Positions 37,318-43,596 of a stretch of 64,000 nt of DNA are shown here, piece by piece. Position 1 is the stretch's first letter, and each line of letters starts with the position of its first letter. The stretch comes from Promethearchaeota archaeon (GTDB lineage: Archaea; Asgardarchaeota; Lokiarchaeia; Sigyniarchaeales; SOKP01), in contig JAHLWS010000070.1 of the NCBI GenBank assembly GCA_019057795.1, forward strand, positions 64,001 to 128,000. The letters are read 5' to 3'. The translations under genes were made by a program, and so were the position numbers. The notes below the pieces were generated by a model. The model made no database searches and was not told where the DNA came from. It was given only the letters and a program-made list of their open reading frames with translations.

Positions 37318-37931
37318 ATGGGAAGAAGAAAAAGAAAGCAACAATCTTATAAAAGAGTCAAAACAGTCCCCAAAATTTTTACTTGCCCAAACAGGTAATT
37401 ATGGTTTTCCCATTTACCTTGGATTGTGGGGAAAAAGCAATAAAAGTAGAAAATTTACGAAAAAGTGTTATAGCTACGGTGAAATGTGGTCATTGTGGTT
37501 TAACAAAGGAAGTTCTGGTTAATTCCATATCAGAACCTGTTGATGCTTTTGGAGATTTTATCGATGTTCATTATGCTGATCAAGAACTTCAGAGATTAGA
37601 AAAGCGTATTGGAAAATTAATAAAAGAAAACGAATGGGGAGAACTAGCATTCTCATACTCAATTTTATCGGATATTTGTAAACTTAAAGTTGCTCAAGCT
37701 TTAGAAGACGAAGATAAAGTAGATTTTGATGAGGTAAATAAATGGAAATTTAAAGCTGAAGAATATAAAAGGCGTGAAAAAGATGCTCTACTTCAATTAG
37801 ACACACTTGAATTGGAAAAAGGAATTAGAACAGACGAAGAATCTTTATTTTCAGAGCATGATGAGAGTGATATGAAAAAAGAAAAGAAAATTGAAGATAT
37901 CTTTGACGATCCTGGTTTTCTTGAATTTTAA
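37318..37931 (+). CDS. elf1: transcription elongation factor Elf1 with acidic C-terminal extension; spliced join(37318..37392,37425..37931), 193 aa
   Basis: MGRRKRK...VPKIFTCPN|CGEK...VKCGHCGL...SEPVDAFGDFID is the Elf1 zinc ribbon once the intron is removed. Confidence 0.88.
37393..37424 (+). other. 32-nt bulge-helix-bulge intron in mRNA
   Basis: CUUGC/GUGGG outer stem, CCAA/UUGG central helix, ACA and AUU bulges, GGUAA/UUACC and AUGG/CCAU inner stems. Confidence 0.85.
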
Positions 37932-37985: not shown

Positions 37986-39716
37986 TCATTTATTTAGGAT
38001 ATGGGATTTAACATTAAGCGGAATATGTTTCCAAATAGGAAGATTTAAGATTAAATTGAAAAAGCGAATTCGATTCAATTTTTTTTTTAAAATAAAGTAA
38101 CTCCAGTTGTAAAATGCTAATTTATTAAAGAGATTCATTAGGTTCACACCAAATAGATTATATCTTGAAGTTAGAAAACTTGCTAAATATGCACCTAATC
38201 GTTTAGTTCGTGGGATTGATTCAGGATATACTGATTCTGATAGAGGTCTATTGAAAATTTCATAAATTGAAAAAATGGGTATAAGAATATCTAAATATTC
38301 ATTTACAATTCTATTGTAATCTGAACTCTCTAACGATAAAGCAGAAAGCTCATTTAATTTTTTTAAGGCAAGATTAAGTTGTTGTTCCTTAAAATAAAAC
38401 CACATAGTTCCCATAGTATCTCTTAATTTCACCAACTCGTCAATAATTTCCTTTTCTTTAAAAGAAAATGAGTTTTTTTTCTCGAAATGTGTTATATAAA
38501 GTAAAAATATTGAGTAAATAGGGGTATTATCAAATTCAGTTAAATTTTTATTTTCCTTGACCTCTTGGAGATCAATTTCTTTATTTGATATATTAAGGAT
38601 AGTATGAGTATATAATGGTGTTGTCCATAACATTCTCAAAATTTTTTCCATAAGTCGAATATGGAGCGTATATTCTTCAATTTTTGAAAATTTTTGAGAT
38701 CGTTTCAAACTAGGAATCGAAAAGGTTTTAGATTGATCGATTCTAAATTTAAATCTATCGATTCTTTTTAATTTATTAATTAATTCTTTTCTTTGTTTTT
38801 TATTTATGAAAATCTTTTCAATTAGCAACTTCTTTATTGATATTAACTCCTTTATGTAGGTATAGAAATCTACATTGTATTTTTTTACAATATAATCGTG
38901 CGTTATTAAAGGAATGCTTATAGTTTGTTTTTGGGTTTTAGTCTCAATACTCATTGCATGGTCCCCTATAGTATATGAAAATGTAATTCTTTCAAGAGTT
39001 TCTTCTAAACTAGAATATACACCTAACTTTTTTGGATCATGGGTGAAATAACCGTGCAAGAGAGTATCGATTCCTTTAAACTTATTATTTTCATATTCTG
39101 AAATTATAACAGATTCAAATTCACCCGGATGATGTCTTTTAATACCGTACCGTTTACCCACAAGAAAGATTGCTTGATTAGCTCTATGACATACAGTATG
39201 AGACCACCTAAACAATGGTTCTAATATTTTTCCAATTGTTAATAAATATCCATAAAATTCTGGTCCAAAATAGATAGGGAATCCAAAACCTCGAGATGTT
39301 GAAAATGTAAATTGGAAAACATTCCTTGTTTTCTCACCTTTTAAAAATCCGGGAAATTTATAGTGTAAAGCTAACCTGGGATAAAGTGCTCCCAAACCCA
39401 AATTCATCCACATTTCAAATAGAATTATGCTGTCAGGAAATTTAAATGAATCTTTTTTGATTAAGAAATCGTCTCTTGATGTGTTTGACGCAGTTGGAAT
39501 AGCATAGAGCCAATCTTTATTGCTTTCTAAAGGTTTTAGCCGGTTTTTATACCTTTTTACCAACAATCGTTTTTTCTGGTTTTGTACTATAGCTTTTTTA
39601 TAATAATAATTATTCAGAACTCTAAAAAGTGAAGTAATTTCTAGTATTTGTCTTTGAAGATCATGAGCTACTTTTACTCGAATAATTCCTGAATTCTTAT
39701 TTGAGGATTGCTGCAC
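37986..39716 (-). CDS. hypothetical protein
   Basis: 576-aa ORF, no recognised motif. Confidence 0.75.
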   Translation of the reverse strand: MQQSSNKNSGIIRVKVAHDLQRQILEITSLFRVLNNYYYKKAIVQNQKKRLLVKRYKNRLKPLESNKDWLYAIPTASNTSRDDFLIKKDSFKFPDSIILFEMWMNLGLGALYPRLALHYKFPGFLKGEKTRNVFQFTFSTSRGFGFPIYFGPEFYGYLLTIGKILEPLFRWSHTVCHRANQAIFLVGKRYGIKRHHPGEFESVIISEYENNKFKGIDTLLHGYFTHDPKKLGVYSSLEETLERITFSYTIGDHAMSIETKTQKQTISIPLITHDYIVKKYNVDFYTYIKELISIKKLLIEKIFINKKQRKELINKLKRIDRFKFRIDQSKTFSIPSLKRSQKFSKIEEYTLHIRLMEKILRMLWTTPLYTHTILNISNKEIDLQEVKENKNLTEFDNTPIYSIFLLYITHFEKKNSFSFKEKEIIDELVKLRDTMGTMWFYFKEQQLNLALKKLNELSALSLESSDYNRIVNEYLDILIPIFSIYEIFNRPLSESVYPESIPRTKRLGAYLASFLTSRYNLFGVNLMNLFNKLAFYNWSYFILKKKLNRIRFFNLILNLPIWKHIPLNVKSHILNK

Positions 39717-39889: not shown

Positions 39890-40312
39890 TCAACTGGTCT
39901 TTCTTTTAGCGAATAAGGATTTTAACTCACCCATAATAGCCCCTCTTAAACTTACAGGGCTGGCTGGACGAGGTCCGCCAGGTCCGCCAGGTCCGTCAGG
40001 TCCTCCAGGTGGCCCTCCAGGTGGCCCTCCAGGCGGTGGTGGGGCGCTACTTGGAGCTGTAGGTGCTGCAATGACAGGAGCTGCCCCAGTTCCTCTCGTT
40101 CTAAGTGCCGAAACATCATTATTTATAGAATTGATTTGCGATTCTAATGTTGAAATTCTTTGACCAACAACCGCTAAAGATTGATCTACTAAATCTGGTA
40201 TTCTTAGAATCATTGACATCATTTTTTCAACAACATCGCCAAATGTATTTAACTTTTCTTCAAGAGGGGCTTTTCTTGTTTCTTGCATGAAATTTGCGAA
40301 TTCTTCGGCCAT
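39890..40312 (-). CDS. coiled-coil + polyproline + WH2/FAB-like helix protein
   Basis: LAVVGQRISTLESQINSI heptads; APPPPGGPPGGPPGGP; LRGAIMGELKSLFAKRK. Confidence 0.8.
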   Translation of the reverse strand: MAEEFANFMQETRKAPLEEKLNTFGDVVEKMMSMILRIPDLVDQSLAVVGQRISTLESQINSINNDVSALRTRGTGAAPVIAAPTAPSSAPPPPGGPPGGPPGGPDGPGGPGGPRPASPVSLRGAIMGELKSLFAKRKTS

Positions 40313-40455: not shown

Positions 40456-41088
40456 TTAACTAGCCTTGTTGACGGAGTTTTTTAAATTAACCCAGAGATC
40501 ATCCACTTCATTCCTAACTTGTAAAAATTGATTAATTTTTTTTAATAGTACATCCCTTGCACGATCAAAATCTCTTTGGGAGTCATTCAATTCAGATTCC
40601 AATATTTTTATCTTTTCTCCTTCGATCAAATCGTTTTTCTTTTTTTCGACAGATAACGCTTTTTTAATAACAACGCTTCTTTTACTGGCTACTTCGGCCA
40701 ACGCTGTAGCAAATTCATATTTTTTTTCTACTAAATAATCTTTTTTTACTGCGAGGTCTTTAATCGAATCTATGTACTTGTTATTTATTTCGATATATTC
40801 ATCATTTTTATGGATGATTTCCTGAAAATATTTTACCTCCTCGTCTTTGATATTTGATCTTCTCTCTCTTACTAGCGTTTGCATTTGCTTTAATACATCT
40901 CTAAACATCCTATTGACCATATCTCGTGTAAGATTTACTTTTCTCAAGTTATCAGCGTATTTTTTTTGAGAATCGATTAATGTAGTCTGATTTTTCGCTA
41001 ATTTTTTTATTTGGCTTACTAATTCTTTTTCCATGCTTGCTAATTCAAGCTCATCTTCATGTGTTATAATTGGGCTCATTTCAATCAA
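40456..41088 (-). CDS. all-helical coiled-coil protein, BAR-like
   Basis: 210 aa, continuous heptad helices, almost no Pro/Gly. Confidence 0.6.
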   Translation of the reverse strand: MIEMSPIITHEDELELASMEKELVSQIKKLAKNQTTLIDSQKKYADNLRKVNLTRDMVNRMFRDVLKQMQTLVRERRSNIKDEEVKYFQEIIHKNDEYIEINNKYIDSIKDLAVKKDYLVEKKYEFATALAEVASKRSVVIKKALSVEKKKNDLIEGEKIKILESELNDSQRDFDRARDVLLKKINQFLQVRNEVDDLWVNLKNSVNKAS

Positions 41089-43443: not shown

Positions 43444-43596
43444 TTATTTTGCTCCTAAGGCTTCTTTGACCTTTTCTAATTCTTCCATTCGTTTCTTTTT
43501 CTCTTCTTCACGTTTTTTGAGGTCTTCTTCGTCAACCTTTTGGAGCGAAACACCTTTTTTGATTTCTTCTTTTAGTTCTTTACCTACGGGCGTCAT
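43444..43596 (-). CDS. 50-aa WH2/beta-thymosin-like small protein
   Basis: MTPVGKELKEEIKKGVSLQKVDEEDLKKREEEKKKRMEELEKVKEALGAK; ATG, tandem TAA TAA; below the ORF-track cutoff. Confidence 0.7.
   Translation of the reverse strand: MTPVGKELKEEIKKGVSLQKVDEEDLKKREEEKKKRMEELEKVKEALGAK

Follow-up and report, generated by a model that had tools for sequence, protein, structure and literature searches.

We describe a family of small proteins that is widespread in Asgard archaea and was previously undescribed. Its member here is a 140-residue protein encoded on the reverse strand at 39890..40312 (140 codons plus stop, from the open reading frame list and translation) of the window, the whole 64,000-nucleotide stretch of Promethearchaeota DNA that was analyzed. 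The protein has a coiled-coil head, a linker rich in proline and glycine, and a basic amphipathic helix at its C-terminus; this architecture is conserved, and there are proteins in which the head is fused to small GTPase or gelsolin domains, or head and tail together to a small GTPase. Our preferred reading, with a probability of about 0.5, is that the protein is a small Asgard-specific scaffold, a multivalent tether carrying a docking helix. Asgard archaea have actin, profilins and gelsolins, and a filament nucleator or elongation factor has not been found in them (PMC9433394; bioRxiv 10.1101/2025.11.30.690169). The 140-aa family shares its layout with eukaryotic actin-assembly scaffolds, and recombination has joined its head to gelsolin and small-GTPase domains.

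The open reading frame is a real gene, and a chance ORF is excluded. A sequence search found 219 homologs at E<=0.01; the 120 of these that were listed span E-values from 1.5e-73 to 2.9e-40, are unnamed or called 'hypothetical' throughout, and come from Loki-, Thor-, Hod- or Promethearchaeota MAGs. An exhaustive HMMER scan yielded 92 cluster representatives, with identity down to ~26%. Two alignments were used below: A1, of Loki-type orthologs, and A2, of 29 diverse members, which also served as a profile. The A2 profile matches 297 of 400 Asgard genomes, 77 of the 90 that are of high quality, and 126 of the 134 in the source genome's own family; profile search of the source genome itself found a single copy. 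No named relative emerged: Pfam gave just sub-threshold coiled-coil noise for the window protein, Foldseek with the AF2 model (one long helix plus disorder) returned zero matches at E<=10, and a protein-atlas and language-model search reached unnamed Asgard clusters only, with no usable named match or named cluster.

The AF2 model, made with the family alignment, has helices at residues 2-14, 17-73 and 122-139, and disorder at 76-119. The sequence-only reading had laid the protein out as a coil, a proline-rich tract and a terminal amphipathic basic helix, and this layout is borne out by sequence and model alike; its three quoted segments all occur in the translation, RIPDLVDQSLAVVGQRISTLESQINSINNDV at residues 37-67, PPPPGGPPGGPPGGP at 91-105 and LRGAIMGELKSLFAKRK at 122-138. 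The head comprises residues 1-73, and its conservation persists to 22% identity. It opens with a short helix, AEEFANFMQETRK (residues 2-14, 40271..40309, reverse strand; alignment A1 and AF2), of which residues A2, E3, E4, F5 and F8 do not vary among Loki-type orthologs in A1. The long helix follows (residues 17-73, 40094..40264, reverse strand; AF2 pLDDT 84-91), with a conserved docking-like start, LEEKLNxFGDxVExMMSxILRIPDLVDQS, and then variable heptads. Across both helices the invariant head start in A1 reads AEEF..F..P.E.K..FG..E..M..L.IP..D. The coil has clean a/d heptads as read from the sequence (V42, L46, V49, I53, L56, I60, I63, V67, L70), and the whole-family profile finds only coiled coils in the PDB, mostly trimeric (adhesins, sigma-1, Lpp), at noise-level E-values.

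The linker (residues 74-119, 39956..40093, reverse strand) is disordered and rich in Ala, Pro and Gly, and includes PPPPGGPPGGPPGGP; its AF2 pLDDT falls below 50 at 76-91 and 93-119. Across the family it ranges from 19 to 62 aa in length and from 16 to 51% in Pro content. P-runs of at least 5 are common in Loki-type proteins, many distant members have one or two, and distant members with few P-runs retain head and tail. The DNA of the Pro/Gly tract forms a GC-rich island (66-71% GC, surrounded by DNA of 12-34% GC, by composition profile) with short tandem repeats that encode GPPG units (39971..40033); TRF identifies a 9-bp unit at 4.4 copies and a 12-bp unit at 2.7 copies, and it is therefore that the linker varies in length.

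The tail, VSLRGAIMGELKSLFAKRK (residues 120-138, 39899..39955, reverse strand), is an amphipathic basic terminal helix and a putative docking motif, placed by the alignments and by AF2 (helix 122-139, pLDDT 73-78). No other part of the protein is as well conserved; its family consensus is SLRGAIMGELKxLFxKRK, conserved to 22% identity. Invariant positions in A1 are R115, P116, P119, L122, R123, G124, A125, I126, E129, L130, K131, L133 and F134. The E129-L130-K131 triplet is invariant in the more distant A2 set, whose members share 22-82% identity with the window protein, and the pattern P-x-S-[LA]-R-x-[AS]-[IL]-x-x-E-L-K-x-[LA]-F-x-[KR]-[RK] is kept at 22-44% identity. Loss of the tail motif from orthologs had been named as grounds for giving up the first interpretation of this gene; A1 and A2 both have the motif conserved. 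Conservation is thus bipartite, at the start of the head and in the tail, as against a variable linker, which supports the tether reading. An ESCRT MIM1 reading of the tail was considered and rejected by eye: IxxELxxLF stands against the MIM1 pattern LxxRLxxLK, with the key Arg replaced by Glu. In one genome (G126) two tandem family paralogs of 130 and 147 aa lie head to tail (L041:6601-7433, forward strand), each with its own tail variant, LRSAVNTELKDLFKKLKK and PRAELQSELKALFSKMKR.

The tail profile finds only two genes in the source genome at E<0.2, the window gene and one that encodes a 414-aa GTPase (G000:C75). The P-loop and WDxGGQ motif of the latter were read from its translation; it has a head-like helix, a short linker and then the tail motif at its C-terminus, ending ...STVLNELKQLFEKKRKLNL. 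It aligns to the family profile within a single ORF at positions 12-60 (E 0.002) and 112-138 (E 0.026). Two further proteins with Arf and Gtr1/RagA Pfam domains, P0145 and P0189, likewise carry the head-tail module at the C-terminus, aligning to the family over residues 15-139 and 70-138. The window protein and these GTPases therefore share a head-like helix and a terminal xx[IL]xxELKxLFxK[KR] in the same order. The likeness to this extension of Asgard Arf/Rag(Gtr1)-like GTPases, with its head-like helix, linker and terminal xLNELKQLFEKKRK, is close, but the window protein is free-standing, has an extra AEEFxxF first helix and has a far longer Pro/Gly arm, whereas the linker of the GTPase copy is short, with few prolines.

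The head occurs without the tail in further settings. It lies C-terminal to the Ras-family GTPase domains of P0158, P0168 and P0214. In P0148 it is fused in frame with a gelsolin that matches 7whg_G, the crystal structure of a Lokiarchaeota 2DGel, at E 9e-11 and eukaryotic gelsolins at E ~1e-5; in P0161 it is in frame with a gelsolin-like domain (Thor 7c2f_B, E 4.5e-4). We think that the in-frame head-gelsolin fusion is new. A metagenome scan found head mosaics on several independent contigs, all of them tailless: one orders a Ras-like GTPase, head, gelsolin and Zn ribbon (L061), another a Ras-like GTPase, gelsolin, head and Zn ribbon with a frameshift present (L096), a third a Ras-like GTPase, gelsolin and head up to a contig edge that precedes any Zn ribbon (L100), and a fourth only head and Zn ribbon (L095). 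A search for the gelsolin/GTPase-head fusions found them in none of the 400 representative genomes; the gelsolin part of the fusions matches ordinary 286-287-aa gelsolins in those genomes, gelsolins of the source genome included. The head fusions are real and probably lineage-restricted.

We examined the neighborhood of the window gene and its homologs. A syntenic block is found within the source genome's own family, consisting of genes for a zinc-finger protein, an unknown, an Elf1-like protein, a 576-aa unknown (in part of the cases), the window gene, a 210-aa coiled-coil protein, a radical SAM protein, Pelota, a 50-aa ORF and a GNAT protein; gene order is weakly conserved beyond the order level. 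The most widely kept neighbor is the Elf1-like zinc-ribbon gene (37383..37931, forward strand; Pfam PF05129, 2.7e-09), whose product has a long acidic C-terminal extension and which is adjacent or one gene off in 11 of 15 loci, three closed genomes included. The gene for the 210-aa protein (40456..41088, reverse strand) is upstream of the window gene and co-oriented with it, across an AT-rich gap of 143 nt. The AF2 model of this neighbor (pLDDT 92.3) has three helices, at 7-71, 79-149 and 154-206, and BAR domains account for nearly all the folds that match it best: arfaptin (Z 13.6 and 13.3), FAM92A (13.2), and further SNX1, APPL, endophilin, amphiphysin and the MIM IMD (11.2). We term it BAR-like and not BAR, because Z ~13 is borderline for helical bundles. 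In family f1 and in one f3 genome (L043) its gene stands next to the window gene or its homolog, but not in the three closed genomes, where the Elf1-like gene alone stays adjacent. In two other families of the class the homolog of the window gene is flanked by a V4R+Roadblock/LC7 gene, and in one of these (L034) a gelsolin-repeat gene is two genes off (PF00626, 21.6 bits, just over the cut-off of 21).

Three minor observations concern these neighbors. The 576-aa protein (37986-39716, reverse strand), which lacks a Pfam match and is encoded between the Elf1-like gene and the window gene, occurs in some genera but not in all, and L040 retains a remnant of it. In Lokiarchaeum ossiferum (genome G138) the ortholog of the 210-aa protein (G138:3020648-3021262) lies ~19 kb from the 2DGel2 gene (tag 02589); by numbering, profilin-2 is tag 02587. 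The 50-aa ORF (43444-43596, reverse strand), beginning MTPVGKELKEEIKKGVSLQKVDEE..., is syntenic throughout the family, with identities of 45-88%, and its stretch ELKEEIKKGVSLQKV is closer to the WH2 pattern LLxxIxxGxxLKKV than is the tail of the window protein; the Pfam WH2 and thymosin models are silent on it at E<=10.

Under the tether reading, the head, made up of a short helix and a heptad coil of ~55 residues, would oligomerize the protein and would probably co-assemble with other head-bearing proteins such as the GTPase/gelsolin proteins. The Pro/Gly/Ala low-complexity arm would act as an extended spacer of variable length, and the near-invariant amphipathic basic helix of 18-20 residues at the C-terminus may serve to dock onto a single partner that is itself highly conserved. 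Such a design recalls FtsZ, which has a folded core, a disordered linker and a conserved C-terminal peptide. The parallel of a variable disordered spacer ending in a short conserved docking peptide is an analogy only: the two have no relation in sequence or fold, and the core here is a coiled coil, not a GTPase fold. For the partner of the tail we give as a rough split 45% to a protein other than actin, 30% to membrane and 25% to actin. To judge from the alignments, a protein groove is favored as the target by E129 and K131, both polar and invariant, and by the non-helical lead-in, which is conserved; that E129 and K131 stay invariant at 22-82% identity is easier to reconcile with a specific protein contact than with binding to bulk membrane. 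We infer that the protein belongs to an Asgard network of small-GTPase, membrane and actin remodeling, because the module ends an Arf/Rag-like GTPase and the head recombines with Ras-like GTPase, gelsolin and zinc-ribbon domains. The tether and the network are favored by the head-tail GTPases, the gelsolin/Ras fusions, the BAR-like neighbor, and the V4R+Roadblock and gelsolin flanking genes, as also by the helix-disorder-helix succession of the AF2 model, the breadth of the family and the proteomic detection described below. Against this reading, the fusions may be confined to one uncultured lineage, gene order is poorly kept beyond the order level, and if the head is a generic oligomerization coil, the fusions say little on the function of the window protein.

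Docking to a protein has to be weighed against the membrane, since the hydrophobic moment and charge of the tail also fit a membrane-binding helix. The tail would then be a membrane-targeting amphipathic helix that anchors both the window protein and the tailed GTPase, with the coil clustering the window protein on the membrane beside the BAR-like protein; we regard this as possible, though doubtful. The window tail has a muH of 0.37 and a charge z of +2, and the six tails tested have muH of 0.31-0.54 and net charge of +1 to +4; the mean hydrophobicity of four of the six falls within the range by which membrane-binding helices are predicted in Asgard Arfs (PMC11914678), and a preprint describes archaeal lipids as permitting the adsorption of amphipathic helices (bioRxiv 10.1101/2024.02.28.582541). 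The position of the helix, C-terminal after a flexible linker and found on a GTPase as well, agrees with this reading and has an analogy in Ras and Rab proteins, which are anchored to membranes by a hypervariable linker and a lipid or polybasic anchor; the BAR-like neighbor agrees too, and absence from a cytosol-biased co-immunoprecipitation (co-IP), treated below, is compatible with it. The details of the conservation do not sit well with lipid binding, for which the invariant E129 and K131, the near-invariant R123 and the lead-in P-x-S/N-P-x-S are unusual; moreover the hydrophobic face is small, and M127 is replaced by N in several families, with mean hydrophobicity down to 0.13.

The sequence-only reading proposed a prokaryotic actin polymerase or nucleator prototype. 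As an Ena/VASP- or WAVE-like factor, the oligomer would recruit profilin-actin on its polyproline, its WH2/FAB-like tail would bind G- or F-actin, and it would nucleate or elongate Lokiactin. The general layout fits, with coil, PPPP/GPPG runs and basic amphipathic helix; the head is fused elsewhere to bona fide gelsolin domains, and a gelsolin gene is nearby in L034. The extreme conservation of the tail would suit a partner as conserved as actin, and a nucleation machinery is not yet known from Asgard archaea (PMC9433394). Likeness to Ena/VASP extends to the oligomerizing coil, the GPPPPP-like runs and the short basic amphipathic helix, but the order is reversed: PRR-GAB-FAB-C-terminal tetramer coil in Ena/VASP (the EVH2 region of VASP), and coil-PRR-helix in the window protein, which has no EVH1 and no WH2-type GAB with LKKV; Pfam matches to EVH1 and VASP_tetra are absent from it. 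For the VASP FAB we take the pattern to be [LI]-M-x-E-[ML]-x-x-[ML]-[LF]-A-[RK]-R-[RK]. The tail scores 28 against the FAB motif (ungapped BLOSUM62; shuffle p 0.0005-0.0035, uncorrected for motif choice), which is to be taken as a lead only. According to PMC3034019, WH2-like properties have been proposed for the FAB of VASP as well. Similarly, the tail shares with WH2 proteins, including MIM/ABBA (I-BAR, Pro-rich region, C-terminal WH2), an amphipathic helix at the C-terminus after a Pro-rich region, although in contrast to MIM/ABBA the BAR-like protein is encoded next door and not fused; and it has a short amphipathic helix with a hydrophobic triad in WH2 style, I126-M127-x-x-L130, which is conserved and LLxxI-like. 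WH2 domains themselves bind actin in the region between subdomains 1 and 3.

More specific comparisons speak against this actin factor. Searches with 16 tails gave no Pfam family at all at E<=10, WH2 (PF02205) included; WH2 did not match the window protein at E<=1, nor was it among the 25 most-matched Pfam families of the 29 full-length relatives. The tail profile found nothing relevant in the PDB, with no WH2-containing or VASP chain. The LKKT/V that should follow the helix is absent, its place being taken by LF-A-KRK in the window protein and [LF][FL]x[KR]x[KR] in the family. Membership of the tail in the WH2 family is not borne out. The central C motif and acidic A motif with Trp by which WASP/WAVE factors activate Arp2/3 are missing: the window protein ends in KRKTS, and none of the 29+29 aligned relatives has an acidic or Trp motif. 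Many distant members keep the tail and have no P-run of at least 5. As to the recruitment of profilin, binding to VASP polyproline was reportedly absent for Loki profilin-1 and -2 and for Odin profilin, and weak, at ~0.25-3 mM, for Heimdall LC3 and Thor profilins (PMC8410842).

Proteomic data bear on the same question. The closed genome G138 (6,035,313 bp) is the one used in a preprint on L. ossiferum motility, as shown by exact agreement between the monoisotopic masses of its ORFs and those tabulated there: 29.89 kDa for tag 02589 (2DGel2), 76.34 kDa for 02254, 52.75 kDa for 02255, 38.10 kDa for 04696 ('Arf') and 24.01 kDa for 02218, the Elf1-like gene directly upstream of the window-gene ortholog. 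That ortholog encodes 152 aa (16.13 kDa) and is most probably GNAMCCOK_02219, going by gene order and on the assumption that the annotation includes the gene. Expression of the protein is probable: GNAMCCOK_02219 was detected in 16 of 16 proteomes at a mean log2 intensity of 18.47, near 'Bar2' (18.55) and above 'Pro2' (17.38). It is absent among the Lokiactin co-IP rows listed, whose log2 ratios run from +10 to -1.06, and is therefore not enriched with Lokiactin, in contrast to gelsolins, one profilin and a Rag-like GTPase. This absence counts with moderate weight against a stable actin complex, and not against a weak or transient contact of WH2 type. Taken with the failed family matches, it makes the actin factor quite unlikely; the polymerase prototype should be worded as a proposal and not as a finding, since the specific family claims behind it did not pass. 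What does find some support is the wider actin/GTPase context, from the gelsolin/Ras-like fusions, the BAR-like neighbor and the nearby gelsolin gene.

The coil had also been likened to BRK1 and CCDC53. If the head were truly homologous to BRK1/HSPC300 or CCDC53, the protein could be seen as the small coiled-coil subunit in an early forerunner of the WAVE/WASH complexes. Like BRK1 and CCDC53 it is a small protein with a core of a single long heptad helix, and there is some weak similarity of coil profiles: BRICK1 (3p8c_E) comes up in the PDB profile search at E 0.37, and hhalign against a BRK1 alignment gave 48% over 23 columns for A2 and 27% over 42 for A1, against 4-9% for reversed controls. 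The BRK1 alignment was built from real BRICK1 sequences recovered by bait search, and its profile is shallow, because that search gave close metazoan BRK1 only. Probabilities of 27-48% are above background and far from homology, and 23-42 columns are all that the alignment spans. The Pfam CCDC53 model (PF10152) matches four of the 29 relatives at E<1, among them P0184 (24.6 bits, equal to the gathering cut-off), P0149 (18.7) and P0195 (15.3). These matches cover coil and Pro-rich low complexity and are borderline, the window protein is silent at E<=1, and we read them as probably reflecting shared architecture or composition. All the scores are under accepted thresholds and lie within coiled coil, where false positives are common; BRK1 has neither proline arm nor tail helix, other WAVE/WASH subunits were not seen in the analysis, and the language-model search reached no named cluster. 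Homology to either protein is accordingly highly improbable.

We return to the tether, of which a bolder version can be formulated. In it, prokaryotes would have an actin-assembly scaffold linked to GTPases, with the window protein as its free-standing arm. The head would co-assemble with the BAR-like neighbor and with Ras/Arf-like GTPase-gelsolin proteins that bear the head, and the multivalent tails, joined in some lineages by polyproline runs, would feed or tether Lokiactin at the membrane. We consider this version distinctly unlikely. If true, it would describe a pre-eukaryotic functional forerunner of Ena/VASP or WAVE-type machines; if the partner is not actin, the invariant tail would still be a new docking motif, one found in an Asgard GTPase family as well.

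Several further observations were made on GTPase and roadblock proteins. The Lokiactin co-IP shows a modest enrichment (log2 1.36, adjusted p 0.034) of the Elf1-like ortholog GNAMCCOK_02218 (G138:2628036-2628656). The co-IP-enriched 'Arf', GNAMCCOK_04696 (L127, reverse strand, G138:C1:~5472000-5473000), is a 329-aa Arf/Rag-like GTPase whose C-terminal half is roadblock-like by eye, giving it a RagA/Gtr1-like architecture and not that of a plain Arf; it does not carry the ELK tail, and neither does the 400-aa L. ossiferum ortholog of the tailed GTPase. In the source genome a 157-aa protein (L103:1477-1950, reverse strand, G000:C78) has a weak Pfam match to MAPKK1_Int of LAMTOR3 type (E 0.0045) and reads as Roadblock-like by eye; its end, ...INKELKELFNSDTISLL, weakly resembles the ELK tail (E 0.87). 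A metagenome contig (Ga0114925_10184633; L099:259-1215, forward strand) has a Roadblock/LC7-like domain, again by eye, within a frame 'ESMEGTDPLLDIHYPRN...PYxYIFKPPEPP...Zn-ribbon' that in sister contigs carries gelsolin, Ras GTPase and head; together these look like a family in which GTPase, roadblock and gelsolin modules are shuffled.
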